Shown one piece after another: positions 1 through 19,680 of a stretch of 64,000 nucleotides of DNA (positions are counted from its first letter, which is position 1; each line of letters begins with the position of its first letter). The DNA comes from Gamaleyavirus NAN33P5, in sequence record OZ035750.1; one strand, 5' to 3'. A model generated the notes under the pieces. It was not told the DNA's origin. It searched no databases and saw only the letters and a program-made list of their open reading frames with translations. Made by a program: the position numbers and the translations under genes.

Positions 1-29
1 AATAGACATAACTTTGTAGAGAGATAAGT

Positions 30-719
30 ATGAGTGAGCTAACTAAGCAGCAGATCATTAATGCCTTGCCTGCTAACTTCAAAAACAGTGTGAGCCAGGA
101 ATTGGTAGACACAATTAACAACATAACCCAAGACCAACTGGTTGCTGAAGCATTCCGTGAAAACTTCATCTCTTACTCTGGTGTTATGAAGGAGGGTAAG
201 TTTAAGACACAGGACTACATGAATGCAGTTCAGTATGTGACTTACAAACATATGGGCTATTCCAATAAGGAAGCCTACTTCAAAACATTCCCTAACCGAC
301 AAGCAGAACTTATAGCACGAGGAACCAGTGAGAAAGATATTAGTGCTTACGTATCTGCTTACCACAGGGGTAAGTTAGTTAACCTCATCATGGAACAAAG
401 TTTGGTTCCAGTGTGGATTGTGAACCAAGACAATTATCAGAAGGCTATTAATGTTCAGGTTGAACTGATGACTACAGCAGCAAGTGAGAAAGTAAGATGT
501 GATGCAGCTAACTCTATCCTTACTCATTTAGCTAAACCGAAAGACCAGGTAACGAATATCAATCTGGACTTGAGGGAGAACTCTGGGTTGACTGACCTCA
601 AGGCAACGCTTGCTGCATTGGCTGAACAGCAAATTAATGCAATCAATAGTGGTGTACCTACTAAAGAGATTGCTGGTTCTAAACTAGTACGTGCAGATGA
701 GGACATTACAGATGTCTGA
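30..719 (+). CDS. hypothetical protein immediately upstream of terminase large subunit; possible terminase small subunit
   Basis: 229-aa ORF overlapping the terL start; position equivalent to the small gene next to terL in N4-like genomes; no diagnostic motif seen. Confidence 0.3.
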   Translation: MSELTKQQIINALPANFKNSVSQELVDTINNITQDQLVAEAFRENFISYSGVMKEGKFKTQDYMNAVQYVTYKHMGYSNKEAYFKTFPNRQAELIARGTSEKDISAYVSAYHRGKLVNLIMEQSLVPVWIVNQDNYQKAINVQVELMTTAASEKVRCDAANSILTHLAKPKDQVTNINLDLRENSGLTDLKATLAALAEQQINAINSGVPTKEIAGSKLVRADEDITDV

Positions 720-2301
720 GTTAATTAAACAGGAACTAGATGAATGGTTGGACCAGGTGGATTACTCCCACCTTAATTCCTCTAACTATGTTCCCAGTCA
801 GTTTGCTCTTACCTTCGCCAACTTTATTAAACTGGTTAATGGCAAAGAAGGTGAATCCAACAAAACACCTCCGGTTCACCTGAAGATGTTGGACAAGATG
901 ATTACCCCGAACCAGTATGTAGTTAATCTGTGTTTCCGTGGTGCAGGTAAGACTGCTGTGTTCATGGAATACTTTACTTTGTTCTTGGCAGTGTTTGGAC
1001 ACTTACCAAGTTTAGGTAAGGTAGAGGGAATGATTTACGTATCTGACTCAATGGATAACGGTGCTAAGTCTGCACGTAAGAACATTGAGTTCCGTTACAA
1101 GAATAGTGAGTTCCTTCAACAGTGGATACCTGAAGCTACTTTTACGGATAACCTGTTAGAGTTCCGTAATGCAGAAGGTCATCGACTGGGTGTTAAGTTG
1201 TTTGGTGCTAAGACAGGTCTTCGTGGTACGAAGATATATGGTAAACGTCCAACACTCTGTGTACTGGATGACTTGATTAGTGATGGTGATGCTAACTCCA
1301 AGACCAGCATGGAAGCTATTAAGGATACTGTCTATAAAGGTGTGAACCATGCTCTTGACCCAACACGTCGTAAAGTAATCTTCAATGGTACTCCATTTAA
1401 TAAGGAAGACATCATCATTGAGGCAGTTGAGTCCGGTGCATGGGATGTCAACGTATGGCCTGTATGTGAGAAGTTTCCTTGTAGTAGAGAAGAGTTTCAG
1501 GGTGCATGGGATGACCGTTTCTCCTATGACTATATCAAAGCACAATACGATATGGCAGTTAAGACTGGTAAGTTGGCTGGTTTCTACCAAGAACTTATGC
1601 TTCGTATTAGTTCTGAAGACGAACGACTTGTTCAGGATAGTGAGATTAAATGGTATAGCAGACAACAACTGTTAAGGATGAGGTCCTGCTACAACTATTA
1701 TATTACAACCGACTTTGCTACTTCGGAGAAACAGACCAGTGACTACAGTGTCATATCAGTTTGGGCTTATAGTTCTAATGGAGATTGGTTCTGGGTTGAT
1801 GGCGTGGCTAATCGTCAGCTTATGGACAAGAACTTCGACGACTTATTCCGTCTGGTTCAGGAATACCAACCACAAAACGTTGGTGTCGAAATTACAGGGC
1901 AACAGAATGGATTCATCTCACTCCTTCAGAAAGAAATGATTAACCGTAATGTCTTCTTTAACTTTGCTACCTCTGAAGGTGGTAAGCCAGGCATCCGTCC
2001 TGTAACCTCTAAGCTGTCACGCTTTAACCTGGTAGTTCCTTGGTTCAAAGCTGGTAAGATGTACTTCCCAGAAGAGTTGAGAGATACAACTATTATGGGT
2101 CTGTTCATGGGCCAGATTAAACTAGCTACCATTAATGGAATCAAAGGTAAGGATGACTGTATTGATACTATCTCCATGCTGGGTTATCTCAATCCTTGGA
2201 AACCACAAGCAGGTATGACCATGGTGGATAACAAGGGTGACCCGATGTGGGATGATGAAGAGGAAGAAAGTGTTAATCCACTGCGTTCATACATTGTGTG
2301 A
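691..2301 (+). CDS. terL: terminase large subunit
   Basis: 536 aa; P-loop-like 'FRGAGKT', Walker-B-like 'LCVLDDLISD', C-terminal RNaseH-like nuclease region ('YITTDFATSEKQTSDYSVISVWAY'); true start may be the internal Met near 712. Confidence 0.85.
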   Translation: MQMRTLQMSELIKQELDEWLDQVDYSHLNSSNYVPSQFALTFANFIKLVNGKEGESNKTPPVHLKMLDKMITPNQYVVNLCFRGAGKTAVFMEYFTLFLAVFGHLPSLGKVEGMIYVSDSMDNGAKSARKNIEFRYKNSEFLQQWIPEATFTDNLLEFRNAEGHRLGVKLFGAKTGLRGTKIYGKRPTLCVLDDLISDGDANSKTSMEAIKDTVYKGVNHALDPTRRKVIFNGTPFNKEDIIIEAVESGAWDVNVWPVCEKFPCSREEFQGAWDDRFSYDYIKAQYDMAVKTGKLAGFYQELMLRISSEDERLVQDSEIKWYSRQQLLRMRSCYNYYITTDFATSEKQTSDYSVISVWAYSSNGDWFWVDGVANRQLMDKNFDDLFRLVQEYQPQNVGVEITGQQNGFISLLQKEMINRNVFFNFATSEGGKPGIRPVTSKLSRFNLVVPWFKAGKMYFPEELRDTTIMGLFMGQIKLATINGIKGKDDCIDTISMLGYLNPWKPQAGMTMVDNKGDPMWDDEEEESVNPLRSYIV

Positions 2302-2307
2302 GGAAAC

Positions 2308-3015
2308 ATGATTAAGTTAACAGAGTTATATAAGAGTCTGGCTATGTCTGTCTTGAATAACACCAGTGTGATAACTGATGACAAGAAAGACATTGAGCCA
2401 GATAAAAAAGAGTACATCCTTGAGTTTATTAATGAGGGACTGACCCGTCTACATGGTAGGTTCCCATTAAAGACAAACAATGTATTTGTTGAAATGCGTG
2501 AGGGTAGAACTGAATACCCTTTACTAGCTCGTTATTCTTTTATGGGATTCGATCCTGCCCTAGCACAGTACCCATTCATTATGGATTCTGCTAGTAACCC
2601 ATTTAAAGAAGACGTCATTAAAATCCTGATGGTGTATGATTCAGAAGGGCAAAGGCGTGGGCTGAATGATAATCACAATCCACATGGATTGTTTACCCCA
2701 CGCCCAGATACATTACAGTGTATTCGTCCTCGTCATTGCGAAGTACTTACGGTAACCTATCAAGCGAAACACCCAACTATTACTGTGGACGGTGAGAACC
2801 AGGAGATTGATTTACCTGATACCCTACTGCCTGCTTTAAAGTACTGGGTAGCTTATAGTTACTACACTGGACTCAATACTGCCGAGAGTACTAGCAAAGC
2901 AGCAGAGTACCTGCAAATGTACGAATCAATCTGTGGGGAAGTTAAGGACTACGACCTCGGAAGCAGTAGTGAGTCAAGCACAAATACATTATTTGAAAGA
3001 AGAGGATGGATATGA
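2308..3015 (+). CDS. virion structural protein (function unknown)
   Basis: 235-aa ORF between terL and tailspike genes, tightly packed in the late operon. Confidence 0.4.
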   Translation: MIKLTELYKSLAMSVLNNTSVITDDKKDIEPDKKEYILEFINEGLTRLHGRFPLKTNNVFVEMREGRTEYPLLARYSFMGFDPALAQYPFIMDSASNPFKEDVIKILMVYDSEGQRRGLNDNHNPHGLFTPRPDTLQCIRPRHCEVLTVTYQAKHPTITVDGENQEIDLPDTLLPALKYWVAYSYYTGLNTAESTSKAAEYLQMYESICGEVKDYDLGSSSESSTNTLFERRGWI

Positions 3016-5708
3016 ATTCTCATAACCCATTTAACACAGGCGGTAATGGTTGCCCTAATGACTTTCGGTCTGATGATCAGTTGGTTGACCGAATTATTGG
3101 AGATGCCTACCACGTAGTAAAGGAAGTTTACCTTGCACTTGGTAACCTTACCTACATTTATAACTACCTACAAAAGTATGGCCTGATTATTACTGTAGAT
3201 AGTGAGGAAGCAATCAAGGACATTCCACTCTCTATTGGGAAGTTTGCTCGTATTTATAATAAATCAGAGACGGCAGGTTACTACTTCACTGACTACCTTT
3301 ATGTAGATGATGATACTAGTGGTATTAAGCCTAACGAACCAGGTGCTACAGGTTCCTGGGTTAGTGCTAAAGCCACTGGTTCCAATGCCTCGTTTGTTCG
3401 TATTTGGAAATACGTTGGGGAGTATAATGGACAAACTATAATACAGTTACCTACTGATATTCCCATTATCGACGTTCAGACTATCTACGTCTCTGGTGTA
3501 CGCCAGAATAGTGGAGATGGTTTTGAGTACAACGAGGGTAGTAAAACCATCACCCTAGCTGATGAGCTTGAGATTGGTACACCGGTAACGGTTATACTCG
3601 GTATAACAGACCCTGACCTTGGTTTGGATATCTTCTCTATTCTGGCTAAAAGTGACGCAGCTTCCACTATAGGTGCTGTTAGTGAAACCAATGAACCATC
3701 TACCGTGGCTGACGAGTTAGTAGCAGCTCGTAATAAACTCAAAGCATTCGAGGATGCTTTAGCTAAGCCAGATGGCTACAAACTGGTCGGTAGTGTAGCG
3801 TCCTTTTCTTCTATGCGTTTGATGACTGGATTGGTCCCAGGGCAACGAGTAAAACTAGCTTCTTATTACTCAGGTGGTAACACAGGAGGAGGTGAGTTTA
3901 TTGTCAAGACTGGTTCAGCTGTGGATGATGCTGGTCATATTTGTGTACCTGCTTCTCAATCTGGTATTTACCTGGAACGTCGTACTAGTACTGTTAAGTT
4001 TAGCGACTATGGTATCACTACGGAGAGTAATAGCTCCGGCCCACGAGTTGACCAGTCTGACAAGGTACAGGCTGCTATTAACAGAGCTAAGAGCCTGAAG
4101 TATGTGTTGGATACTGAAATAGCTTCAGAAAACCACTACATTTATACTGGTATCTATGTAGAGAAAGGTATTGATATTACCGGGCTAAAAACTATTCGAG
4201 GTTGCTTCTCTTTACTGTTTGACTCTACTAAAATCGCTGGCTTATCAGCCCCTGGTTATTCTGACGTACAATGGGCTTTGGTTAACTTAAACGCTAAGTT
4301 TGACACTGCTGGTATCATCTTTGGTACTACTGTAGGTAACCAATCGTTCGATAGTATTGTGGTACGTGATGTATCTAACCGTGGTGCATCCTGCGGTGGG
4401 CAACTTCATGTTACATCCGGGACCATGGTATCTGGTGCATTATGTGCTACTGATGTTAATGGACCCGGCGTGTGGGTACTTGGTTCCTATGATTCTGTGA
4501 TTTCGGATATCCGTACAGTGAATTGCGGTAACGCTTTGTTGTGGGCTATCGATATTGCAGGTTACAGGGGTTCTCGCGTAGATAATACCAACTGCATGGT
4601 TATTAGTAGGATTGAGAGTCATGATTCACTAGACCGTGCTTTGCGTTGCAATGCAGACCTTTCAGACATTGGTGAGATTCACGTCGAGGCTACTGTAGTT
4701 GCTTCAAATGCTGTATCCAGTTCTGCAACTATTGCGGATAATGGCTGGGGATACGCAAACGTACTGCTTGCAGGATTAGGTACTACCTACGGTTCTGTAC
4801 GAGATTTACCTGTATCTGGTTCTATACCAGCCGTTTTTGAGCTAGTTGCAGATGATACCAGTATTGGTGAACTCAGCTTGCCTCGGTCTAGTCTGTCTAT
4901 TCACTACGCTTTTACTACACCAAGGGGGACTTTAAGTGCTGGTACTATAAACCTCTCCGGTGATGTTATTGTAAAGGATGGGGCTAATACCAATATAGAT
5001 GCACTGACTGTTACTGGGGCATCCTCTAAAATTACCAGCTCTTCTACTAACTTTAATGTTGGTATTTTAAGGGCTACTGGAGCTAATGCCTCATTTAATG
5101 GTATTGGTGGGCGTTACGGTAGACTTGATTGTGCTGTAGTTTTCCTGACCGGTAGTGATGTAACAAGAGGTTCTATCACCAATCTTACGTTGGGTGACCG
5201 CAATACATTAACTCAGGTTGCTGCTCAGACGCTTTTGGTTAATGGTACTCGAAACTATTTGTCTGATGGTTTTAGGGTTTCTGGTGTTAGTACTTTGAAT
5301 GGTATTAATAACGCTGCTACCAATGCGGTATTTGTTGGTGTTGTGACTCTTACAGACCCCTGGAAGTTTGATAAGGTATATATCAATGCTAACCTGGTTT
5401 ATACGGGCAATACCACATCAACCCTCTATGATGTTTCTTTCCAGGATGTGTTTATAGCAGGTGACTTAGTACTATCAGGAGCTTGCCGTATTCACGGTCA
5501 TAACCTTCGTGTTATCAACTTACGTATAGGCACTATGTCTGAAGGATTCATTGTATTGAATAACTGTGTAGTAGCAGGTGGAGTTGAGGGTAACTATGTA
5601 GATAGTTTTAATGTTCCTGCTATTGGGAGTATTACTCAGAACTTTACTACAGGTGTTCCTTACGTGTATACACCCACAGGATGGAAGCTACTTACAGCAG
5701 CAGCCTAA
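3006..5708 (+). CDS. tailspike/tail fibre protein with predicted right-handed beta-helix (possible depolymerase)
   Basis: 900 aa; Gly/Asn/Thr/Ser-rich periodic segments typical of pectate-lyase-like beta-helix; location in tail module. Confidence 0.55.
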   Translation: MDMNSHNPFNTGGNGCPNDFRSDDQLVDRIIGDAYHVVKEVYLALGNLTYIYNYLQKYGLIITVDSEEAIKDIPLSIGKFARIYNKSETAGYYFTDYLYVDDDTSGIKPNEPGATGSWVSAKATGSNASFVRIWKYVGEYNGQTIIQLPTDIPIIDVQTIYVSGVRQNSGDGFEYNEGSKTITLADELEIGTPVTVILGITDPDLGLDIFSILAKSDAASTIGAVSETNEPSTVADELVAARNKLKAFEDALAKPDGYKLVGSVASFSSMRLMTGLVPGQRVKLASYYSGGNTGGGEFIVKTGSAVDDAGHICVPASQSGIYLERRTSTVKFSDYGITTESNSSGPRVDQSDKVQAAINRAKSLKYVLDTEIASENHYIYTGIYVEKGIDITGLKTIRGCFSLLFDSTKIAGLSAPGYSDVQWALVNLNAKFDTAGIIFGTTVGNQSFDSIVVRDVSNRGASCGGQLHVTSGTMVSGALCATDVNGPGVWVLGSYDSVISDIRTVNCGNALLWAIDIAGYRGSRVDNTNCMVISRIESHDSLDRALRCNADLSDIGEIHVEATVVASNAVSSSATIADNGWGYANVLLAGLGTTYGSVRDLPVSGSIPAVFELVADDTSIGELSLPRSSLSIHYAFTTPRGTLSAGTINLSGDVIVKDGANTNIDALTVTGASSKITSSSTNFNVGILRATGANASFNGIGGRYGRLDCAVVFLTGSDVTRGSITNLTLGDRNTLTQVAAQTLLVNGTRNYLSDGFRVSGVSTLNGINNAATNAVFVGVVTLTDPWKFDKVYINANLVYTGNTTSTLYDVSFQDVFIAGDLVLSGACRIHGHNLRVINLRIGTMSEGFIVLNNCVVAGGVEGNYVDSFNVPAIGSITQNFTTGVPYVYTPTGWKLLTAAA

Positions 5709-5777
5709 CCTGGTAGCAAACACTGAACGACTAGCCCACTTAGGTGGGCTTTAAAACTACAACATGAGGACTAACCC

Positions 5778-7781
5778 ATGAATAAAATGTTCACACAGCC
5801 CACTGGACCAGTGGCTAAACAGACTAATAAACAAGCAATTGCTAGAATATTTTCCGTCAGGCAGGCAGATATAGGTTATATCAATGAGCATATACTAGTG
5901 GATGACTATACTCTGCTGTATGACCGTATCACAGAGGCTACGTGGTACAGAGGCACGGCAACGGGTACTCCACTCAGCTGGTCTGTAACTGGTTCCAAGC
6001 TTACTCTTACTACCACTACTGGTACTTATGAGCTAACTAAAGCTGCTGTTGTTACGGAAGCTTCTCTTAAGTCTCCTTCTGCTATGGAGTCTATTTATAC
6101 TCCTACGGGTGGTACACTGGCTTCTTTATTATTACGTACAGTTTCACCGGCAGAGTTTGGTTTAGTTAATGACCCAACCGGGGTTAATGCAGTTAAGAAT
6201 ACCAAAGCTGTTCAGGATGCGGTGCGTGAACTTAACCGTCTTGGTGGGGGCCGTCTTTTGTTCCCAACTGGGCAGTATACCTTTTGCTATGGCATTTGGT
6301 TATTCAGTAATATCCTTGTAGACCTTAATGGTAGTGTGTGTACATTTAAGGATGCTACCTTCCCATTACGTAGTCGTGCGTGTTTTGTCATGGGTTCTTC
6401 CTACGAGTCCAACCGAGAAAAAGCACTAGAGTTCTATGAAGATGGTTCTTTTGCTAACAATCCTAACCCTACTAATACAGCTTACGTTAACGTACCATTG
6501 GGTACTTTCTTACGTGACAATCCTAATAAGGTTGAGATTGAGAACTGCCATATCTATAACGGGCACTTAAAGGCTACATTCACATCTCCAACAGCTAATG
6601 GTGCATATGCAGTTAATATGGTCAATGCTCAGTATTGCTCAGCACACGACCTAACCTTTGATGGGTTTACAGAAGCTATTAACATGGGTTCGGATACAAA
6701 CAATGAAACCCCATCTTGTCATGGGTGCTCTGCTTATGACTTGGTTGTTTTATCCCCAGACCAGAATAAAACCTATTACTCCATTGGTTTTATTTCTAAC
6801 TCTACTAATTGTGCTATCTCCAGAGCACGGCAGATTGCACCATGTAAAGATGGTACAGAGAATGGTTCTGGCGTCGCTACTAACGTAGTAGAGGATTGCA
6901 TAATTGAGGATATCTTTATCCCATCCTTGGGTATTACTCAGTCTTCCGAGGGGGTACTACTTAATAATGCTAAAGGAAGTCTTGTCCGTAATATTTGTGT
7001 ACGTAATTGTAAGGTAGTTGTTGCTGTATTTTATGTAGGAACCAACTACATCAGTGCTGACAAATGGAACCATGTAACGGGGATTACTGGTAAGGGCACT
7101 ACTGCATTGATTGCAATTCGTGGTAAGTACACTACATTCTCTGACTTTGCTGCTGACTCTACTACCCCATATGAGATTTATTTTGGTACTTCCAACGGTT
7201 CCAATAACCGCATCGAACAAGAACCTAAGACCATCTATTTTACTGAGACGTCCACTATTAAGGCGTTCTGGTATTGCAACAATAACTACATTAAGGGGTG
7301 GGAGGTTAAGAGATTATACCTTAGACCTGCTCAAATATTACTGAATGATAAGGCGTCTGTATTCAGCTTCAATGCTAATAAGTCAGTAGCAATGAACGAT
7401 GATACGACCATTATGTTCTTGTATGACCTCCCACCAGGTATTAAAGCATTAAAGGCTGTTAAGTTGTTTGCCTACTACAACACTAACTCTGTGGCTAAAG
7501 GTAGTAGCATTACTATTGCTGTAAGGCGTATGGTAGCTATTGATGGTAACGCTAACGCTGAGCCATATGTAGAACCAGGTATTGCAGCTACTTCCAATGC
7601 TACCACTGATATGAAGGATATCTCTATGAGTGCTATACACTCAGATACAGTTAGTCCCGGTATGATTCGTATGGATGATACTACCAATGGACTGGCTAAT
7701 AATCTGGATGTACTCGTTACATTCTCCAATACAGCAAAAAACTCTTTGATGAAAGAGTGGGAAATAACTTACGTAGGATAA
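5778..7781 (+). CDS. second tailspike/tail fibre protein (beta-helix-like)
   Basis: 667 aa; N/T/S/G-rich repetitive segments; follows the first spike gene. Confidence 0.5.
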   Translation: MNKMFTQPTGPVAKQTNKQAIARIFSVRQADIGYINEHILVDDYTLLYDRITEATWYRGTATGTPLSWSVTGSKLTLTTTTGTYELTKAAVVTEASLKSPSAMESIYTPTGGTLASLLLRTVSPAEFGLVNDPTGVNAVKNTKAVQDAVRELNRLGGGRLLFPTGQYTFCYGIWLFSNILVDLNGSVCTFKDATFPLRSRACFVMGSSYESNREKALEFYEDGSFANNPNPTNTAYVNVPLGTFLRDNPNKVEIENCHIYNGHLKATFTSPTANGAYAVNMVNAQYCSAHDLTFDGFTEAINMGSDTNNETPSCHGCSAYDLVVLSPDQNKTYYSIGFISNSTNCAISRARQIAPCKDGTENGSGVATNVVEDCIIEDIFIPSLGITQSSEGVLLNNAKGSLVRNICVRNCKVVVAVFYVGTNYISADKWNHVTGITGKGTTALIAIRGKYTTFSDFAADSTTPYEIYFGTSNGSNNRIEQEPKTIYFTETSTIKAFWYCNNNYIKGWEVKRLYLRPAQILLNDKASVFSFNANKSVAMNDDTTIMFLYDLPPGIKALKAVKLFAYYNTNSVAKGSSITIAVRRMVAIDGNANAEPYVEPGIAATSNATTDMKDISMSAIHSDTVSPGMIRMDDTTNGLANNLDVLVTFSNTAKNSLMKEWEITYVG

Positions 7782-7784
7782 GCT

Positions 7785-8027
7785 ATGGATAACTCAGCAA
7801 GCCGTGATGTGATTCAGGTCTACCGTGCATTGTATGATTACCTGGTTAACCAGGAAAACCTAAATGCAGAGCAATCTCTTGTTAAAAGCAGACTTGAACA
7901 GGACCAGGGGATAATCTGTGATAGTTCCCTGGATAGTAAAGTATTTGCTATTCAGACCAGTGTGGCAAATGCCACTACAGACAAAGAACGGGATAGCTAC
8001 CTAGAAGCATTAGTTAGTATCCTGTAA
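7785..8027 (+). CDS. hypothetical protein
   Basis: 80-aa ORF, start 4 nt after spike gene stop, followed by terminator. Confidence 0.3.
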   Translation: MDNSASRDVIQVYRALYDYLVNQENLNAEQSLVKSRLEQDQGIICDSSLDSKVFAIQTSVANATTDKERDSYLEALVSIL

Positions 8028-8031
8028 ACAA

Positions 8032-8058
8032 AGCCCCCATAAAGGGGGCTTTTTCTTT
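8032..8058 (+). terminator. rho-independent terminator
   Basis: stem gccccc / gggggc, loop ataaa, followed by tttttcttt. Confidence 0.75.
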
Positions 8059-8123
8059 CTTCCTTACTCATACTTAAATCAGTATTATCATTCAGTCAGA
8101 CTCTTCTGATACGTCCCGAATGG

Positions 8124-8486
8124 GTGTTATTAAAAAACATTAAGGACTTTCTCATGAGCGATGAATCGACTTCGGTTCTTCTTGCCCGATTGGAGGAAAG
8201 ACTGGAAACACTATTTAAGAACCAAGAAAAAGAAGAACGCTCCAAAGATAGACTGGAGCAAACTCTATCTGGTTTGAGGGAGTCTGTTCAGCAAATGGAA
8301 GGCAGACTAAAGAACGTAGAGGATAGCCTTGCCAAGTCTGAACCCACCATAGAAGAGTTCATCACTATTAAACACAAAGTTGCTGGTGCTGGAATTTTTG
8401 GTAAGTGGGTATGGGCTGGAGCAGGTGCAATTATTGGCATATTGGCTGCTGCAAGACGGGAGATATTCGCATGGTTTGTAGGCTAA
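8124..8486 (+). CDS. coiled-coil protein with C-terminal transmembrane segment (possible lysis-associated/antiholin-like)
   Basis: 120 aa; charged helical N-terminal part, C-terminal 'AGAGIFGKWVWAGAGAIIGILAAA' hydrophobic segment; first gene of the lysis cluster. Confidence 0.35.
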   Translation: MLLKNIKDFLMSDESTSVLLARLEERLETLFKNQEKEERSKDRLEQTLSGLRESVQQMEGRLKNVEDSLAKSEPTIEEFITIKHKVAGAGIFGKWVWAGAGAIIGILAAARREIFAWFVG

Positions 8487-8731
8487 AAAGAAAGATAGGA
8501 CTAGTACCGAATTGGAAGAAGGCCTGGAAGTGGGCATCTGTTCAGATTAGTGCGTTTGGGTTAATTTTGTTTTCTGCTGTAGATATTATCCAACCAATGC
8601 TGACGGGATTGCCTCGTCACATCCTTGAAGATATTCCACATGGTTCCAGCATTACAATCGCACTGTTTGCCCTAAACATTGTAGGCAGACTAATACGATT
8701 CCATCCAAAGGATGATTCTCATGAAAGCTAA
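8471..8731 (+). CDS. putative holin (two transmembrane segments)
   Basis: Internal Met of ORF 8405..8731 ('MVCRL...'); two hydrophobic helices ('ISAFGLILFSAVDII', 'ITIALFALNIVGRLI'), charged C-terminus; stop overlaps endolysin start. Confidence 0.45.
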   Translation: MVCRLKRKIGLVPNWKKAWKWASVQISAFGLILFSAVDIIQPMLTGLPRHILEDIPHGSSITIALFALNIVGRLIRFHPKDDSHES

Positions 8732-9356
8732 ACAGAAACTTGCTGCAAAAGGTGGTGCAGTGGGAGGAGTTGTCGCTGCTATTCTGGGGGCAGTGTTCTA
8801 TATGGAAGGAGGGTATGTAAACAATCCTCGTGACCCAGGTGGGGAAACTAATCATGGTATTACTCAATCAGTAGCTAAGTCTCATAAAGAAGTTCTGGCT
8901 ACTGAGTATGGTTGGGATGGTTCCATGAAGGGTTTATCTAAAGAGATGGCTGCTGAGATATACATTGATGACTATGTACTTAAGCCTAACTTCGTAGCCT
9001 TCGCTGATATATCTCCTGCTGTAACACATAAACTGGTTGATGCTGGTGTTAATACCGGTGTAACCAGACCAGCTAAGTGGTTGCAGCAATCTCTTAATGA
9101 AATGTCCCGTGATGGCAAAGACTACCCTAAAGTACAAGTTGATGGTAAAGTCGGTGCAGGTACTATTAATGCATATAAAGCATTACAGAAAAAACGAGGC
9201 AAAGTTGCAGCATGTCAGGTAATGATTAAGTTACTTGATGCTAAACAACTGAACCACTACACCTCATTGAACATGCCAGACTTTACGTATGGTTGGGTAG
9301 CTAACCGAATCGGTAATGTGCCACTGGAGGCATGTAATGAAGATGCTAATCTCTAA
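8712..9356 (+). CDS. endolysin, GH108-type muramidase with peptidoglycan-binding domain and SAR-like N-terminal segment
   Basis: 'EGGYVNNPRDPGGETNHGIT' GH108 signature after a Gly/Ala-rich weakly hydrophobic N-terminus ('GGAVGGVVAAILGAVFYM'); N4 gp61-like position. Confidence 0.8.
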   Translation: MILMKAKQKLAAKGGAVGGVVAAILGAVFYMEGGYVNNPRDPGGETNHGITQSVAKSHKEVLATEYGWDGSMKGLSKEMAAEIYIDDYVLKPNFVAFADISPAVTHKLVDAGVNTGVTRPAKWLQQSLNEMSRDGKDYPKVQVDGKVGAGTINAYKALQKKRGKVAACQVMIKLLDAKQLNHYTSLNMPDFTYGWVANRIGNVPLEACNEDANL

Positions 9357-9837
9357 AGGTTGGCCTTATCTTCTGGTGGTGGTCCTTGGGGCCACCATTT
9401 ACTTTTGGGGTAATTCCAATGGACAGTCTACTGTTCAAAAGAAGTGGGATGCCCAAAAGGTTGAAGACCTGAAGGCAACGCAAAAACTACAGGACAAATA
9501 CAATGCTCTCCAAAGAAACCATAGTTATGAAGTCGGGCTACTCACTTCCCGGTTGCAGACGGCTGAGAGTAATTACGCAAGCGAGCTTGCTCGCGTTAGC
9601 AGTGATTACGACAGCCGGATGCAACAGTCTGAAAGACGAGCATCGGTATATAAACGTCAAGCCGAAGCCGGAACCCTTGAGTGCAGAAGTCTTGCAAGCC
9701 ATGCAGCCAGACTCGACAACAGTCTTGAAGAAGGCAGACGTTTGGTTGAAGAACTCCGGGCAACTGTTAGACTCCGTGACAACCAACTAATTGAGTTGGG
9801 TAAGCAAATTCAGGCTGACCGTAAACTTTTTGAATAG
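9316..9837 (+). CDS. i-spanin (Rz-like)
   Basis: 173 aa; N-terminal TM ('[17 protein letters not shown]') then coiled-coil-like charged periplasmic domain; immediately after endolysin. Confidence 0.6.
9527..9790 (+). CDS. o-spanin (Rz1-like lipoprotein) embedded in +1 frame of Rz
   Basis: Signal peptide with lipobox 'ITTAGC', short Pro-rich mature peptide; entirely nested in the Rz gene. Confidence 0.55.
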   Translation: MKSGYSLPGCRRLRVITQASLLALAVITTAGCNSLKDEHRYINVKPKPEPLSAEVLQAMQPDSTTVLKKADVWLKNSGQLLDSVTTN

Positions 9838-9845
9838 GATTAACT

Positions 9846-12116
9846 ATGGAACACCAAGACACTTTTAAGCCTTTACCAGACCCGGCTCAATCAGAGAAAC
9901 TAACGGACTGGAAGAAGGAACCAAGTATCCAATTACTGAAGGGTGATTTGGAATCAGCTAAACCTGCTCACGAAGCAATCATGGCACAGATTCGTGAGTG
10001 GAATGACCTGATGGAAGTCAAGGGTAAAGCTAAACCTCCAAAGGTTAAAGGACGTTCTCAAGTCCAACCTAGACTGGTTCGCCGTCAGGCAGAGTGGCGA
10101 TATGCTCCATTGTCTGAGCCGTTCCTCTCATCTAATAAACTCTTTAAAGTAACCCCGGTTACTTTTGAAGATGAGTTAGCTGCAAGACAGAATGAGTTAG
10201 TTCTTAACTACCAATTTCGTACCCAGCTTAATAAAGTGAAGCTGGTAGATGATTACGTACACAGTGTCGTAGATGACGGTACTGGTATTGCTCGTATTGG
10301 CTGGGAACGTAAGACCGTTAAAATTAAAACAGAAACACCGGTCTTCCAGTTGTATCCAATTGAGAACCAGGAACAGGCAGATGTTCTTCAACAGGCTTTA
10401 CAGCTTCAGGCAGAGAATCCTCGTGAGTATGATGAAACAATGCCGGAAGATATTAAGGAAGCTGTTAACTACTTCAATGAAACTGGAGAAGCTACTTATG
10501 CAATCCAGACTGGGATTACTGAAGTAGAAGTAGAGAAGGCACTGGTTAACAGACCTACCGTTGAAATGCTTAACCCCAATAACGTGGTTATTGACCCTAG
10601 TTGTAATGGTGATTTGGATAAGGCTCTGTATGCAGTTATCTCATTTGAGACATGCAAAGCAGACCTCATGAAGAACAAGGACCGTTATCACAATTTAGAT
10701 AAGATTGACTGGGAAAGTTCTAGCCCTATGACTGACCCAGACCATGAAAGTAAAACTCCAAGCGACTTCCAGTTTAAGGATGCACTTCGTAAGAAAGTTG
10801 TTGCCTATGAGTACTGGGGATTCTACGACATCAATGATGATGGCTCTCTGGAACCAATTGTTGCTACCTGGATTGGTTCTACCCTTATTCGTATGGAGAA
10901 GAACCCATTCCCGGATGGTAAGTTACCTTTAGTAGTTGTTCCTTACATGCCCCGTAAACGCGAACTCTTTGGTGAAGCTGATGCTGAACTATTAGGTGAT
11001 AACCAAGCAATCCTTGGTGCAACTATGCGTGGGATGATTGACCTGTTAGGTCGAAGTGCAAATGGTCAACGTGGTTACCCTAAAGGGATGCTGGATACAC
11101 TGAACCGTCGTCGATATGACGATGGACAAGATTATGAATACAACCCAATGCAGGGTAATCCTAGTCAGGCCATTATGGAACATAAGTTCCCTGAGTTACC
11201 TCAGTCGGCAATAGTAATGACCCAGATGCAAAACCAGGAAGCAGAATCCCTAACTGGTGTTAAAGCATTCTCTGGTGGTGTAACTGGTTCAGCTTACGGA
11301 GATGTGGCTGCTGGTATTCGTGGTGCACTTGACGCAGCATCTAAACGTGAGATGGCAATCCTTCGTCGATTAGCTAAGGGTATGGCAGATATTGGTACTA
11401 AGATTTGTGCAATGAATGCCGTGTTCTTATCGGAGAAAGAAGTAGTACGTATTACTAACGAGCAGTATGTAGAGATTAACCGTGAAGACCTTAAAGGTAA
11501 CTTCGATATTGAGGTTGATATTAATACTGCTGAAATTGATAACCAGAAGTCTCAGGACTTGAGCTTCATGGTTCAAACACTGGGTAATACGGTTGACCAG
11601 ACTATTACGTTATCTCTTGTAGCTAAGATTGCAGAACTTAAACGTATGCCTGACCTGGCTCATGAGTTACGTACTTGGCAACCACAGCCAGACCCTATGG
11701 AAGAACAGCTTAAGCAATTGGCAATTCAGAAAGCACAGCTTGAGAATGAAGAGCTGCAAAGTAAGATTGCACTCAATATGGCTAAGGCTAAAGAGGCAGC
11801 TTCTGCTGGTGACCTTAAAGACCTGGATTATCTGGAACAGGAATCTGGTACTAAACATGCTCGTGATATGGAAAAACAAAAAGCACAATCTCAAGGAAAC
11901 CAGAACCTTCAAATAACTAAGGCATTGACAACACCTATTAAAGAAGGTGAAACTACCCCCAACATATCTGCTGCTGTTGGATATAATACATTGACTGACG
12001 GGAACTCTATACCAGAACGTGATTTAGCTGCTCAGCAAGACCCGGCTTATTCACTCAGTTCCCAATACTATGACCCTAGCCAAGACCCAGCATCGGCTCT
12101 TGGCATGAACCTGTAA
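9846..12116 (+). CDS. portal protein
   Basis: 756 aa; size and position (between lysis genes and scaffold/capsid) match N4 gp59-like portal; acidic C-terminus. Confidence 0.65.
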
Positions 12117-12129
12117 GGCAGACCTTCAC

Positions 12130-12474
12130 ATGAGTAAAGAATCAACAATCGCTGGACTGGAACATCGACTGGAAGCTGCTAAAGGTGCAGTTGCACATGC
12201 AGAAGATGTACGTAAACTTCTGGAGAATCCACTGTTCCGTAAAGTAATTCTTCGCCAGTTCTGTGTGGAAGATTGCGCACGTTACGTGCAAGAGTCTGGT
12301 GACCCACTGCTTGAAGCTAATAACCGTGCAGATGCATTGAACATGGCTCAAGCTGCTGGTCACTTACGTCGTTGGCTCGACCTCGCTATTCGTATGGGTG
12401 AAAACGAAGCTGACGTTATTCTACAGGTAGAAGAAGAACTCGACGCAGTTCGTGCTGAACCTGAAGACGAATAA
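12130..12474 (+). CDS. hypothetical head-module protein
   Basis: 114-aa ORF between portal and scaffold-like gene. Confidence 0.35.
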   Translation: MSKESTIAGLEHRLEAAKGAVAHAEDVRKLLENPLFRKVILRQFCVEDCARYVQESGDPLLEANNRADALNMAQAAGHLRRWLDLAIRMGENEADVILQVEEELDAVRAEPEDE

Positions 12475-12493
12475 TTAACCGGAGATATTTCCT

Positions 12494-13714
12494 ATGACTA
12501 CGGAAGCTGCAACCACAGCTTCCGACATTCTCGCAATGTCGGATGATGAGATTCTGAATATGGAAGCCCCAGCAGTTATCGCTGAGGAAGAAACTTCCAC
12601 TCAGAACAACCCTGAAACCAACGGCGTACAGACTCCTGAAGAAGAAGTTTACACCCCTGCTGTTGAAGACCTACCAACCGAAGAAACCTCCCCCGAAGCC
12701 GAACCAGATGAAGAAGATTCAGCAAATACTTTAACTTCTGATAAAGTTGATGATAAAGTTGTTGACACAGAAGTTGATAGTAACGGTGAGCCGATTACTA
12801 AAGCTGAACCTTCTACTACTGAACCAGGCCAGGAACAGAAAGAAGAAGGCAAACAGTCTGAAGGTCTGCCTGCTGACTTCAACTATAAGGAAGGTTACGA
12901 GAAGTTGATGGCTCCTTTTAAAGCTAACGGCAAAATGATTACTCCCCGTTCACCGGAGGAGGCCATTAGCCTGATGCAGATGGGTGCTAACTATACTCGT
13001 AAGATGCAAGAACTACAGCCTTACCGTAAGGTAATGTTGATGTTACAGAACAACGGTTTGATGGATGAGGATAAACTTTCTTTCCTGATTGATCTGGATA
13101 AAAAGAATCCTGAAGCCATTAAGAAGTTGCTCAAAGACTCTGGTACAGACCCTCTGGACTTTAACCCAGATGAGGAAATTAACTACCAGGGTGGCAATCA
13201 CCGTGTTACCGACACCGAAGCAGATTTTGCAACCGAAATTGACGACTTAAAGTCTACTCAAGAAGGACAAGCTACATTAGGTGTTATTAGTTCGACATGG
13301 GATGCTGTCAGTAAAGATGCTCTTTACCAGAATCGTGGGCTACTCCAGACTATTCACGAACAACGTGAGAATGGTATTTATGACACCATTGCAAACGAAG
13401 TGAATCGTCTTCAGATGTTAGGCCAGATTCCGGTTGGTACTCCGTTCATTCAGGCTTATAACCACGTCGGTAACCTCCTTTCACAGCAAGGGGCATTTAA
13501 CCGAGTGGCTAAGCCTGAACCGGTACAAGCAGTTAAACCAGTGGTTCAGCCGGTAGTGCGTGTAGCACAACCTAAGCAGACCCTGGCTAACAGTGAGCAA
13601 GCTAAAGCAGCTTCCCTTAGTCGGGCTGCTACACGTAAAGCAACACCTATTGTAAACCCACTCGCTATGAGTGATGAAGATTTCGCTAAACTCCCAGTAC
13701 CGGGTAGTCTTTAA
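12494..13714 (+). CDS. putative scaffolding protein
   Basis: 406 aa, highly acidic Glu/Pro/Thr-rich N-terminal region, immediately upstream of major capsid gene. Confidence 0.4.
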   Translation: MTTEAATTASDILAMSDDEILNMEAPAVIAEEETSTQNNPETNGVQTPEEEVYTPAVEDLPTEETSPEAEPDEEDSANTLTSDKVDDKVVDTEVDSNGEPITKAEPSTTEPGQEQKEEGKQSEGLPADFNYKEGYEKLMAPFKANGKMITPRSPEEAISLMQMGANYTRKMQELQPYRKVMLMLQNNGLMDEDKLSFLIDLDKKNPEAIKKLLKDSGTDPLDFNPDEEINYQGGNHRVTDTEADFATEIDDLKSTQEGQATLGVISSTWDAVSKDALYQNRGLLQTIHEQRENGIYDTIANEVNRLQMLGQIPVGTPFIQAYNHVGNLLSQQGAFNRVAKPEPVQAVKPVVQPVVRVAQPKQTLANSEQAKAASLSRAATRKATPIVNPLAMSDEDFAKLPVPGSL

Positions 13715-13730
13715 ACAGGAATAAGATGAT

Positions 13731-14933
13731 ATGTTAAACTATAACGCTCCAGTTGACGGTCAGAAATCTAGCATTGATGGTGCTGGTTCCGACCAGATGA
13801 ATACCTTTTACTGGCTGAAGAAAGCTATTATTCAGTCCCGCAAAGATCAGTACTTCATGCCACTGGCTAACACCATCAACATGCCGAAGAACTACGGTAA
13901 GACTGTTAAGGTGTATGAGTACGTTCCACTGCTTGATGATAAGAACATCAACGACCAGGGTATTGATGCCAACGGTGCTACCATCGTTAATGGTAACCTG
14001 TATGGTTCGTCCAAAGACGTTGGTAACATCACCTCTAAACTGCCTCTGCTGACAGAGAACGGTGGTCGTGTTAACCGTGTAGGCTTTACCCGTATTTCTC
14101 GCGAAGGTTCCATTCATAAGTTCGGTTTCTTCTACGAATTTACCCAAGAGTCTCTGGACTTTGATTCTGATGACCAGCTGAAAGAACACCTGTCCCGTGA
14201 ACTGATGAACGGTGCTGTACAGTTGACTGAAGCTGTTCTCCAGAAAGACCTGTTGGCTGCTGCTGGTACTGTACTGTATGCAGGTGCTGCTACCTCTGAT
14301 GCTACCATCACTGGTGAAGGTTCTACCCCGTCCGTAGTTTCTTATAAGAACCTGATGCGTCTTGACCAGATTCTTACTGAGAACCGTACTCCGACTCAGA
14401 CTACTATCATCACTGGTTCTAAACTTACTGATACCAAAGTACTTGGTGGTACTCGTGTAATGTACGTTGGTTCTGAACTGGTTCCTGAACTGAAAGCGAT
14501 GAAAGACCTGTTCGGTAACAAAGCATTCATTGAGGTTCAGCACTATGCTGATGCTGGTACTCTGATGAATGGTGAAGTTGGTTGTATCGACAAGTTCCGT
14601 ATTATCCAGGTTCCAGAGATGCTGCATTGGGCAGGTGCTGGTGCTCAAGTCTATTCTAACCCGGGTTACCGTTCTTCTATGGTTAGTGGTCAAGAACACT
14701 ACGACGTATTCCCGATGCTGGTAGTTGGTGATGACTCCTTCTCTACCATTGGCTTCCAGACTGATGGTAAGTCTGTTAAGTTCTCCATCATGACTAAGAT
14801 GCCTGGTCGAGAAACTGCTGACCGTAATGACCCGTATGGCGAGACTGGTTTCAGTTCCATCAAGTGGTACTACGGTATTCTGGTTAAACGCCCAGAACGT
14901 CTGGCTCTGATTAAGACTGTTGCTCCTCTGTAA
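13731..14933 (+). CDS. major capsid protein
   Basis: 400 aa; position after scaffold; strong hairpin directly downstream; size equals N4 gp56-like MCP. Confidence 0.75.
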
Positions 14934-14949
14934 TAGTCCTAAATAAAGT

Positions 14950-14975
14950 AAGGGGGACTTATGTCCCCCTCTTAA
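14950..14975 (+). terminator. hairpin/terminator after capsid gene
   Basis: gggggac-ttat-gtccccc stem-loop followed by weak T-tract. Confidence 0.5.
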
Positions 14976-15000
14976 CAAAACAAAATGAACCACAGGAAAT

Positions 15001-15642
15001 ATGAACATGAGCATTAACGATAAACCGACCACTGACGTAGAACTGGACGTACAGGGCAACGAAGATACCGTTAACGATATTGCAATGCCTAGCGAACTTG
15101 ATGTTCTTAAGCAACGTGCAACGTTGATGAATATTAAGTTCTCTAACAACATCTCCGTTGAGAAGCTCCGTGAGAAGATTGAAGCTGCACAAGCAAAAGA
15201 CGAACCAGAAGTAAAAGAATCTACTGTTAACCCTTTGGGTGAAAAACAAGAGGCAGGTGTTAAGAAAATGACTCTGGGTCAGAAGATTCGTGCAGAACAG
15301 ACTCGACTGATTCGTGTACGTATCCAGAACCTTGACCCTAAGAAGAAAGATCTGCCGGGTGAAATTATCACCGTAGCTAACGAATATATGGGTACTGTAC
15401 GTAAGTTTGTTCCATTCGGTGAAGTAACCGACAACGGTTATCATATTCCGTATTGTATTTATGAGTTCCTTAAAGAACGTAAGTTTGTCAATATTACGAC
15501 TCGCAAAGGTAAGAATGGCTTACCGGATATCCGTGCAACAGAAGCACGTGAGTTCTCCATTGAAGTATTGCCACCACTGACTGAAGCAGAATTGGCTCAA
15601 CTGGCTCAAGCACAGATTGCTGCTGGTAGCCTGAACGATTAA
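15001..15642 (+). CDS. virion protein (unknown function)
   Basis: 213-aa ORF in structural operon. Confidence 0.4.
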   Translation: MNMSINDKPTTDVELDVQGNEDTVNDIAMPSELDVLKQRATLMNIKFSNNISVEKLREKIEAAQAKDEPEVKESTVNPLGEKQEAGVKKMTLGQKIRAEQTRLIRVRIQNLDPKKKDLPGEIITVANEYMGTVRKFVPFGEVTDNGYHIPYCIYEFLKERKFVNITTRKGKNGLPDIRATEAREFSIEVLPPLTEAELAQLAQAQIAAGSLND

Positions 15643-15661
15643 CGTATAAGCTACAGTTCAA

Positions 15662-15700
15662 CACGGCTCACTGGGGTAACTCCGTGGGCCGTTTCTTTTT
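15662..15700 (+). terminator. putative intrinsic terminator
   Basis: acggctcac / gtgggccgt imperfect stem followed by ttcttttt. Confidence 0.45.
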
Positions 15701-15712
15701 GAACCAAGAGGA

Positions 15713-16555
15713 ATGATTATGTCTTGTTCTGCTGAGGTAGAAGCTAACCGACTCCTAGATGAGTTAACTAAGGGTGATGACTTTACCCTTCCTAATGTTG
15801 ATATGTCTGGTCCTGAATGGGATATCCCTGGTGGAGATAGCTCCCCAATCTTTGGTGCTATTACTAAAATAACAAACGAATCGCTTACTACCCGTGAAGT
15901 AGGTGGTAGTGGTACGTTTGATGCATTAATGGAATCTGCACACAATCACCTTAAAGCTGAGTATAAAGCTAACCGTATTACTGGTGGTGAATATACCAAG
16001 GCGTACATTGCTACGATGGAAGCCTGCATGAATAATGCTGTTCAGTTCTTACTTGGTCGTGACCAAGCATACTGGGCTGCTGCTATGGCACAGATTCAGG
16101 CAGTTACTGCACGTGTTGGTTTGGCAACGGCTAAAGCACAGTTTGTACTTGCTAAGGCACAAGCACTGTCTACTAAATCTGAGTATGCCTTAACTAAGCT
16201 GAAACTCTCTAATGAGGGCCAGAATTACTGTGCTGCAAAGTTCAATGTGGATGAGATTCTTCCTGCACAGGAACGCTTATTACAAGAACAATACGAAGTA
16301 CAGCGTGCACAAACCATGGAAACCCGTTCTGACTCTTTACCAATCAAAGGTAGTATTGGTAAGCAGAAGGAGCTGTATGACCAACAGATTACTTCTTATC
16401 AACGTGATGCAGAAGTTAAAGCATCCAAACTATTTACCGATGCGTGGATTACACAGAAGACTATTGATGAGGGCTTGAATCCTCCTAATGGTTTCACTAA
16501 CGCAAGTATTGATACCATTCTGTCCAAGCTGAAGTCTAACAACGGGCTGAACTAA
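15713..16555 (+). CDS. virion protein (unknown function)
   Basis: 280-aa ORF; stop overlaps next gene start. Confidence 0.4.
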
Positions 16556-16556
16556 T

Positions 16557-19668: not shown

Positions 19669-19680
19669 TAGGAAACCATC

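Follow-up and report, generated by a model that had tools for sequence, protein, structure and literature searches.

In the 64,000-nt sequence of Gamaleyavirus NAN33P5 analyzed here (record OZ035750.1; this whole stretch is called the window), five overlapping genes on the + strand at positions 8154-9837 appear to form a complete lysis cassette. They encode a pinholin-like protein, a two-transmembrane (two-TM) holin, an endolysin, an inner-membrane spanin (i-spanin), and an outer-membrane spanin (o-spanin) embedded in the i-spanin gene. By comparison with phage N4, we estimate a probability of about 0.9 that this cassette is the gene-for-gene ortholog of N4 gp63-gp62-gp61-gp60/gp60a and acts through pinholin-triggered release of an endolysin of the signal-anchor-release (SAR) type. 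Being the ortholog of an experimentally characterized system, annotated in close relatives, the cassette is already known; it adds no concept beyond the N4 work, and the main value of the analysis lies in correct annotation. Two minor leads, a predicted hairpin within the i-spanin gene and a candidate mosaic junction within the pinholin gene, had no description in the N4-like lysis literature searched.

A complete lysis cassette had been proposed for this region by an earlier reading of the letters without database searches (the sequence-only reading). All five open reading frames (ORFs) were found on the + strand with the properties it described, and family searches agreed. The proposed combination of holin, GH108 endolysin of the SAR type, and Rz enclosing Rz1 also matches the annotation of the related phages Bas96, Mimir124, and Paxi as well as the experiments on the N4 orthologs. 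Three of the start codons in that reading (8124, 8712, and 9316) probably need to move downstream by 9-30 nt. Based on Shine-Dalgarno spacing and the annotation of relatives, the genes probably start at 8154 (110 aa), 8471 (86 aa), 8721 (211 aa), and 9337 (166 aa); GTG 8124 lacks a Shine-Dalgarno sequence and is unused in the annotation of relatives. Neighboring genes overlap by 16, 11, and 20 nt, which fits translational coupling.

The five cassette genes and their N4 counterparts

Blastp aligned the 110-aa protein with N4 gp63 (66.7% identity over 108 of 110 residues, E 3e-53) and, over most of their lengths, the 86-aa protein with gp62 (53.7%, E 7e-37), the endolysin with gp61 (69.8%, E 8e-112), and the i-spanin with gp60 (57.9%, E 1e-60). 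The embedded frame was 61% identical to the embedded frame of N4 (gp60a). In the N4 record, gp63, gp62, gp61, and gp60 follow one another in the identical order directly 5′ of the portal gene, and the succession of gp63-like gene, gp62-like gene, endolysin, spanins, and portal is kept in Schitoviridae of eight host genera. Delftia phage RG-2014 (NC_027348) carries a gp63-like gene directly upstream of its endolysin gene and has no gp62-like two-TM holin; this natural 'gp62 deletion' fits an essential gp63 and a dispensable gp62. Unless stated otherwise, genes were compared across the window and 19 further loci, i.e. 12 from close Gamaleyavirus relatives and seven distant ones, the latter from N4 and phages of Achromobacter, Erwinia, Xanthomonas, Stenotrophomonas, Pseudomonas, and Delftia.

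The N4 cassette, also attributed to Stojkovic and Rothman-Denes (2007) as cited there, was characterized experimentally by Awuah et al. (bioRxiv 10.1101/2025.11.12.688109; below, Awuah et al.), whose results were as follows. The gp60-63 cluster lyses E. coli ~25 min after induction. The 110-aa gp63 is C-terminally anchored, and the helical domain at its N-terminus is predicted to lie in the cytoplasm. It complements a defect in the S21 pinholin, not one in lambda S, is lethal alone (>99% of cells killed), and forms small depolarizing holes that release SAR but not soluble endolysins. It was described as the pinholin that sets lysis onset and as the target of lysis inhibition, with six rapid-lysis mutations at S62, T65, I70, T71, and I72 marking a 'LIN domain'. 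Deletion of gp63 delays lysis onset by 20 min, and survivors were found only with suppressor mutations in the SAR domain. By comparison, gp62 is a nonessential, late-triggering, large-hole holin that releases soluble as well as SAR endolysins, and its deletion leaves plasmid-driven lysis unchanged. The SAR endolysin gp61 works with a pinholin, replaces R21, causes slow holin-independent rounding like R21, and gives rapid lysis when its SAR segment carries a negative charge. Finally, gp60 and gp60a together fully complement lambda Rz/Rz1 (Awuah et al.).

By orthology with these experiments, the most likely course of lysis by the window phage would be the following. The endolysin would be exported by a weakly hydrophobic, Gly/Ala-rich SAR segment and would stay tethered and inactive, with the Glu of its EGGY motif right at the inner membrane. 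Meanwhile the 110-aa tail-anchored protein would build up in the inner membrane until, at its programmed time, it forms small holes; pinholin-type hole formation is extended here from N4 gp63, the protein for which alone it was shown. Loss of the membrane potential would then release the endolysin synchronously for degradation of the peptidoglycan. The two-TM holin would act as a late, large-hole accessory, able to free the endolysin if the pinholin is inhibited. Joined in a complex across the periplasm, the i-spanin in the inner membrane and the o-spanin, an outer-membrane lipoprotein, would disrupt the outer membrane once the wall is gone.

Several points weigh against this interpretation. 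The window proteins are only 54-70% identical to the tested N4 proteins, so that timing and hole size could differ. Their topologies rest on hydropathy, on orthology, and, for the lipobox, on the residues ahead of its Cys as read manually; the AlphaFold2 (AF2) model of the pinholin is of low confidence (pLDDT 55), and Met17, an alternative start of N4 gp63, is Leu in the window protein. For N4 itself, predictors of transmembrane domains (TMDs) disagree on the orientation of gp63, and the gp62 and gp63 deletions in the phage could not be complemented (Awuah et al.). Moreover, the Gamaleyavirus G7C shows no lysis inhibition (Awuah et al.), and regulation may accordingly differ in this genus.

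The putative pinholin gene (8154-8486, + strand) was assigned by blastp, PHROG, hydropathy, alignments, and the N4 gp63 experiments. Its product matched PHROG 5211 over residues 1-110 (E 2.5e-49; function label none or 'unknown function'). The sole hydrophobic peak covers residues 81-99 (KD19 1.61, 47% Gly/Ala/Ser), pointing to a single Gly/Ala-rich C-terminal TMD at about residues 77-100, preceded by a long charged helix forming a predicted cytoplasmic domain of ~75 residues. The long soluble part with a single C-terminal TM segment seen by the sequence-only reading was thereby borne out. DSSP assigned helices at 3-61 and 73-109 of the AF2 model, which was too weak for a fold search and was used for secondary structure only. 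At all five LIN positions of N4 (S62, T65, I70, T71, and I72), located in the juxtamembrane segment SEPTIEEFITI (residues 62-72), the window protein has the identical residue. The C-terminal half is invariant in the alignments, with PTIEEFITIKHKV.GAG.FGKW.W nearly so among relatives.

Exchanging the roles of the first two genes, i.e. taking the 86-aa protein as the primary holin or pinholin and the 110-aa protein as an antiholin or accessory regulator that forms no holes, gives a reading we regard as unlikely. Classical pinholins, exemplified by S21 of phage 21, are class II proteins with two TMDs, and PHROG 1356, the family of the 86-aa protein, is labeled 'holin' while PHROG 5211 carries no label of function. 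The clustering of the N4 rapid-lysis mutations in gp63 would likewise suit a regulatory partner, as would the co-occurrence of the gp63/gp62 pair in 60 of 65 N4-like genomes (Awuah et al.). Such a partner would not, however, complement the S21 defect and kill >99% of cells by itself, as gp63 does. The deletions point the same way: without gp63, onset is delayed by 20 min and phages survive only with SAR-domain suppressors, whereas without gp62 plasmid-driven lysis is unchanged, and RG-2014 has the gp63-like gene without a gp62-like one. The suggestion of 'an antiholin or regulator' for the 110-aa protein is consequently retained in its second half, as the site of lysis-timing regulation; the first half was dropped since the N4 ortholog is a hole-former and itself the target of lysis inhibition. 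A dual-start antiholin form of the pinholin was also judged unlikely: N4 Met17 is replaced by Leu, and GTG 8124 has neither a Shine-Dalgarno sequence nor use in relatives.

Homologs of the 110-aa protein are named 'tail length tape-measure protein' in Bp4, U1G, ZQ2, KP8, Fifi450, HN03, UniRef, and others, and its N-terminus gives weak coiled-coil matches, as expected if it were a virion or assembly protein. We consider this extremely improbable. The protein has 110 aa and a C-terminal TMD, is always encoded directly 5′ of the holin and endolysin genes, and has an N4 ortholog with demonstrated lysis function, while the Pfam and PDB matches are to generic, sub-threshold coiled coils. The Pfam search with this protein and 10 orthologs returned sub-threshold coiled-coil noise only, and searching the PDB with a profile of the aligned pinholins gave nothing beyond generic coiled coils; a relationship to DUF1515 (best E 0.001, two of 11 members, below cut-off) was not accepted. 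The tape-measure name seems to be an annotation error that has spread from record to record on account of the coiled-coil N-terminus. Another database name for homologs is 'chromosome segregation ATPase'.

By tblastn, the gp63-like family was found in 145 phage records. It forms 349 clusters in a large protein database, none with a Pfam domain; many of them, including most of those found on more than one contig, sit on contigs of 70-75 kb. Partial tblastn matches were also seen in JX181829.1 (Salmonella phage SKML-39, positions 1-195; residues 23-87, 66%) and MH252123.1 (Klebsiella phage ZCKP1, 68846-68986; residues 41-87, 72%). Both records are ~150-160 kb and not N4-like, and one match lies at the very start of its record; a chimeric assembly or gene fragment could explain them. 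The 110-aa gene, widely labeled tape-measure or 'hypothetical', should be named a gp63-type pinholin.

The second gene (8471-8731, + strand) encodes the putative two-TMD holin, the gp62 ortholog by blastp, DUF7940, and PHROG 1356. Hydropathy placed hydrophobic segments at residues 22-40 and 59-77; DUF7940 matched at 9.6e-15 (above the Pfam cut-off) and PHROG 1356 'holin' at 1.6e-29. With a Lys/Arg-rich N-terminus and a charged C-terminus, the orientation would be N-in/C-in. The 86-aa two-TM protein overlapping the endolysin start thus proved to be of a holin family, as the sequence-only reading had it; treating it as the holin of the cassette did not hold up, because N4 gp62 is nonessential and late, its role and that of gp63 being reversed. 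Longer in-frame forms from GTG 8405 (108 aa) or ATG 8411 (106 aa) are possible; dual-start antiholins of the lambda S107 type arise in this manner, through a charged extension at the holin N-terminus. Enquatrovirinae and Achromobacter phages keep these upstream starts, but the loci examined from Erwinia Fifi450 and from Xanthomonas, Stenotrophomonas, and Pseudomonas phages lack them. Their conservation says little, because 8405 and 8411 overlie highly conserved codons of the pinholin TMD.

The third gene (8721-9356, + strand; 211 aa) encodes a predicted SAR endolysin with N-acetylmuramidase function, assigned from GH108, PG_binding_3, and identity to gp61. Both Pfam domains scored above cut-off (GH108 6.3e-20, PG_binding_3 2.3e-8), and PHROG 315 'endolysin' matched as well. 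The predicted SAR core GGAVGGVVAAILGAVFYM covers 18 residues, 11-28 (nt 8751-8804), of which 50% are Gly, Ala, Ser, or Thr (KD 1.87). K2, K4, K6, and K10 precede it, and EGGY follows directly, with Glu29 at nt 8805; all 20 relatives examined share this design of a SAR-like core and EGGY. Pfam, hydropathy, and core composition together confirm the earlier description of a GH108 signature placed directly after a Gly/Ala-rich, weakly hydrophobic N-terminus. The nearest solved structures were 6V3Z and 6V40 (E 2.7e-27). The N4 endolysin was reported as a SAR N-acetylmuramidase in 2015 (PMC4319500), and EGGY is a catalytic motif common to the N4 gp61 family and TtsA-type muramidases (PMC13284979).

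A Lys-rich N-region ahead of a hydrophobic core of 18 residues is also what a cleavable Sec signal peptide or a permanent anchor might look like. We rate such an arrangement as very unlikely, since the core is 50% Gly/Ala/Ser/Thr and joined to EGGY, so that cleavage would remove active-site-adjacent sequence, and since N4 gp61 is pinholin-compatible, shows slow holin-independent rounding like R21, and lyses rapidly on gaining a negative charge. Sec-dependent export, membrane tethering, and release by depolarization, shown or argued for N4 gp61, would be expected for the window endolysin.

The i-spanin gene (Rz equivalent; 9337-9837, + strand; 166 aa) was assigned from PHROG 6197 'Rz-like spanin' (1.4e-77), identity to gp60, and hydropathy. 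Its product combines an N-terminal TMD at about residues 8-24 (in the 166-aa form, the hydrophobic peak covers residues 3-21) with a periplasmic, helical domain of ~140 aa. Pfam gave nothing above threshold for it, DUF2514 reaching E 0.02 only, and for the embedded ORF neither Pfam nor PHROG gave a match. The window spanins would be functional analogues of lambda Rz/Rz1 rather than members of those sequence families.

The putative o-spanin gene (Rz1 equivalent, gp60a ortholog; 9503-9790, + strand) was recognized by frame conservation, tblastn, and third-position constraint. It lies fully inside the i-spanin gene in the +1 frame (ORF 9503/9527-9790). The lipobox TTAG|C, whose Cys codon is at 9620-9622, would be followed by a mature part of 56 aa with no further Cys and with Asn at +2, where the absence of Asp goes with sorting to the outer membrane. 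A lipoprotein ORF with lipobox 'TAGC' inside Rz had been noted before, and stop-to-stop translations showed it to be a lasting feature: in 20/20 sequences the frame was open, with the lipobox Cys, a mature part of 56-59 aa, no Asp at +2, and the motif INVKPK.EPL...LQAMQP.ST.LLKKA. In the seven distant loci, tblastn identity was 48-67% for the embedded frame, at least equal to the 40-58% of the Rz frame. Among 13 close relatives, Rz third codon positions varied at 17 of 96 sites in the overlap versus 21 of 55 upstream of it (Fisher p = 0.0066), the pattern expected of dual coding.

That the embedded frame is a chance ORF and the phage relies on Rz alone would suit its missing Pfam and PHROG matches and the several GenBank records that leave it unannotated. 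Considering its persistence in every genome compared, an identity at least that of the Rz frame, the constraint on Rz synonymous sites in the overlap, and the need for N4 gp60a alongside gp60 to complement the lambda spanins, we see next to no chance of this; the embedded ORF is taken as the o-spanin gene.

ATG 9527 is the o-spanin start annotated in relatives (Bas96). Its equivalent is replaced in two relatives (loci L011 and L013), both of which keep the equivalent of ATG 9503, and an AGGA Shine-Dalgarno sequence lies upstream of 9503. The gene therefore probably starts at 9503 and encodes a 95-aa precursor. Read manually, the residues before the Cys presumably fit the lipobox of PROSITE PS51257, and only with the 9527 start is the Cys placed within positions 15-35. 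In the PhAPEC7, SP5M, HN03, and Bp4 records, either a C-terminal i-spanin fragment (72-95 aa) or the embedded frame is all that is annotated, and the first ~260 nt past the endolysin are left blank. Truncated fragments of this kind seem to underlie PHROG 20026 (74 positions). Both the i-spanin, often truncated in GenBank, and the embedded o-spanin merit full annotation.

Hairpins and other candidate transcription signals

Inside the i-spanin ORF, a terminator-like hairpin was predicted at 9375-9399 (+ strand), formed by GGTGGTGGTCC-TTG-GGGCCACCATT and followed by TACTTTTGG. With an 11-bp stem and a 3-nt loop, it begins 19-20 nt past the endolysin stop codon, in the TMD-coding part of Rz (codons 13-21). 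It was the strongest terminator-like site in window positions 1-20000. The stem alone has a free energy (dG) of -16.8, the hairpin scores z -2.69 vs shuffles, and within the surrounding 7 kb no 40-mer was more stable than the best 40-nt window at this site (dG -17.9).

At the equivalent i-spanin position, N4 has a hairpin of other sequence, GGGGTAGCTC-TGG-GAGCTACCCT then TTTTCTTCTT, and hairpins are likewise placed in Moo19, in Bp4, and in the L035 group. Across seven aligned Enquatrovirinae sequences, 98.7% of cells were paired and four of the 11 pairs had changes on both sides. The covariation score was reached by none of 500 shuffles, and slid registers paired at 42-61% only. Such apparent compensatory changes in seven related sequences are supportive, not conclusive. 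In KP8-like phages, the hairpin is shorter, its register is shifted, and TTTATTTGTT follows it. Farther afield, the top-ranked hairpin lies 10-76 nt past the endolysin stop in Achromobacter, Xanthomonas/Stenotrophomonas, Pseudomonas, and Burkholderia lineages; in several Erwinia-like and environmental lineages no post-endolysin hairpin was found. With lineages grouped by eye, ~11 of ~24 had a block-wise hairpin p < 0.1.

The PhAPEC7 record annotates the i-spanin hairpin as 'putative terminator determined with ARNold' and the SP5M record as a terminator. Neither shows it inside a gene, because both truncate the Rz ORF. A search of the literature for mapped N4 late terminators turned up only an ONT-cappable-seq study of LUZ7, without discussion of lysis genes, and the preprint on N4 lysis (Awuah et al.) does not mention an i-spanin hairpin. 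The N4 plasmid assays relied on lambda Q antitermination (Awuah et al.), and any effect of the hairpin may have been masked in them because lambda Q antitermination reads through terminators.

The simplest idea for the predicted hairpin is an attenuator or mRNA-end element between the endolysin and spanin genes. That it is a transcription attenuator or mRNA 3′-end element that uncouples the spanins and portal from pinholin, holin, and endolysin, and so helps to set lysis timing or inhibition, is a tentative proposal that we think somewhat doubtful. Promoter hairpins of the N4 virion RNA polymerase require a conserved purine in the loop. A promoter of that type was ruled out for 9375-9399, a site on the late strand of the late region with T, C, A, or G as central loop base among relatives. 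With its candidate compensatory changes, the i-spanin hairpin is offered as a follow-up lead on lysis timing in N4-like phages.

Upstream of the cassette, the terminator scan and folding identified an intrinsic-terminator-like hairpin at 8030-8052 (+ strand), AAAGCCCCC-ATAAA-GGGGGCTTT with a T-run (dG -16.4 kcal/mol, z -3.81, none of 200 shuffles as stable). A similar hairpin occupies the same place in several relatives. It would close the tailspike module, so that the lysis cassette begins after it.

Between this hairpin and the pinholin gene, ~65 nt 5′ of the latter, lies the conserved motif TAAATCAGTATTATC (8075-8089, + strand), with AGTATTATC conserved in the alignment of Gamaleyavirus upstream regions. 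Possibly, TAAATCAGTATTATC is a -10-like late-promoter element, although this is inference only: within the window it does not recur beyond chance (7 matches at ≤3 mismatches vs 8.8 expected), and no promoter is claimed. The sigma-70 promoter scan gave nothing convincing, and Rfam over 7900-10000 nothing near any gathering score.

Genomic context and a candidate mosaic junction

The window covers most of the genome of a G7C-like Gamaleyavirus (Schitoviridae), i.e. an N4-like podophage. Megablast with positions 7700-10000 matched 86 phage records. Klebsiella phage vB_Kpl_K57alpha1.2 (Gamaleyavirus) ranked first, with 99.0% identity across the whole query, followed by G7C-like coliphages with 92-97% over 72-86% of it. 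Along the 64 kb, a terminase, two tailspikes, the lysis cassette, the portal (SU10_portal, E 1e-150), and then other large + strand ORFs follow one another; a 3456-aa + strand ORF presumably encodes the virion RNA polymerase. Large ORFs on the minus strand occur from ~36 kb on. The cassette is flanked by the terminator-like hairpin that closes the tailspike module and, downstream, by the portal gene.

The tailspike genes (3006-5708 and 5778-7781) and an 80-aa ORF (7785-8027) had a high-identity match in K57alpha1.2 only. Other Gamaleyaviruses align up to ~3465-3900 and again from ~8031. Region ~3465-8030 looks like a host-range module swap, which would be consistent with a Klebsiella host.

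The right edge of the swap probably lies inside the pinholin gene. When the window was compared with G7C, Bas96, and PhAPEC5-type phages, synonymous sites in pinholin codons 1-55 were saturated (pS 0.72-0.76, pN 0.42), while pS was 0.20-0.31 in codons 56-105 and dS 0.06-0.10 in the endolysin gene. Megablast alignments to these phages begin exactly at ~8316. This divergence profile, the alignment starts, and the tailspikes common to K57alpha1.2 only put the predicted junction inside the gene near 8316, at the start of the conserved half of the pinholin, whose N-terminal cytoplasmic domain seems to be exchanged together with the tailspike module upstream of it. Positive selection on the N-terminus was rejected in favor of recombination, the synonymous sites being saturated too.

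The LIN segment is identical in the G7C-type sequences, and yet G7C is reported to lack lysis inhibition; the LIN segment alone does not predict the phenotype. As a weaker lead, the interchangeable N-terminal domain of the pinholin may decide whether an N4-like phage shows lysis inhibition. A junction exchanging the cytoplasmic domain together with the host-range module would be another lead on lysis timing in these phages.

Some further observations concern annotation. In the closest record, OY979416.1 (K57alpha1.2; 22116-27416, locus L003), the annotation does not match the underlying sequence: pseudo-CDS features labeled 'RIIA/RIIB lysis inhibitor' run on the opposite strand over the tailspike and lysis region, and the feature table seems offset relative to the sequence. 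On the minus strand of the window at 33799-33958, ARAGORN reported a tRNA-Ile (anticodon aat) and an adjacent odd tRNA-like sequence with a two-base anticodon. A strong, bidirectional-looking hairpin at 14950-14971, reading GAGGGGGAC-ATAA-GTCCCCCTT on the minus strand, lies just past a 400-aa ORF (13731-14933) and may be another late-region terminator. A 472-aa antisense ORF (13734-15152) is probably spurious.

Comparison with known lysis systems

The closest experimentally characterized counterpart is the cassette of N4, an Enquatrovirus, whereas the window belongs to Gamaleyavirus. The two agree in their five genes, with the same order and overlaps and the portal directly downstream, at 54-70% identity. 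Both have a 110-aa pinholin with the LIN residues, a SAR core followed by EGGY, a mature o-spanin of 56 aa, and a hairpin in the TMD-coding region of the i-spanin gene. They differ in the N-terminal cytoplasmic half of the pinholin, which is divergent in the window and has Leu for Met17, and in the o-spanin, with a signal peptide longer than that of N4 and lipobox TTAGC instead of TIVGC.

G7C-like cassettes (RudolfBernhard_Bas96, PQ850623; Mimir124, PQ310662; vB_EcoP_G7C) are closer in sequence, with 92-97% DNA identity over most of their length. Bas96 annotates the holin, endolysin, Rz-like spanin, and o-spanin, and its lengths and overlaps match the starts proposed here except for that of the o-spanin. 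The gp63-like gene is 'hypothetical' in G7C-like records. In G7C, Bas96, and PhAPEC5-type phages, the pinholin gene in its 5′ half and all that lies upstream of it, tailspikes included, are of a different lineage from the window. G7C-type phages are also reported to be without lysis inhibition, unlike N4.

With phage 21 S21/R21 the cassette would share the logic of small depolarizing holes that free a membrane-tethered SAR endolysin; the sequences are unrelated. Of the two TMDs of S21, the first is SAR-like and leaves the membrane. The window pinholin has one C-terminal TMD and a cytoplasmic domain of ~75 residues, and the N4 ortholog of the two-TM protein is a large-hole holin, so that neither protein belongs to the S21 type. 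The endolysins differ as well, GH108 in the window and T4-lysozyme-type in R21. The spanins resemble lambda Rz/Rz1 in pairing a type II inner-membrane protein with an outer-membrane lipoprotein encoded in an embedded +1 frame, and form a separate family (PHROG 6197). Finally, the endolysin shares GH108, PG_binding_3, and EGGY with the TtsA/Sen1395-type muramidases of Salmonella type 10 secretion (6V3Z, 6V40), and TtsA has been placed in the N4 gp61 family (PMC13284979). The TtsA-type enzymes are bacterial and secretion-associated, and their alignment covers the window endolysin from about residue 19-23 onward only.

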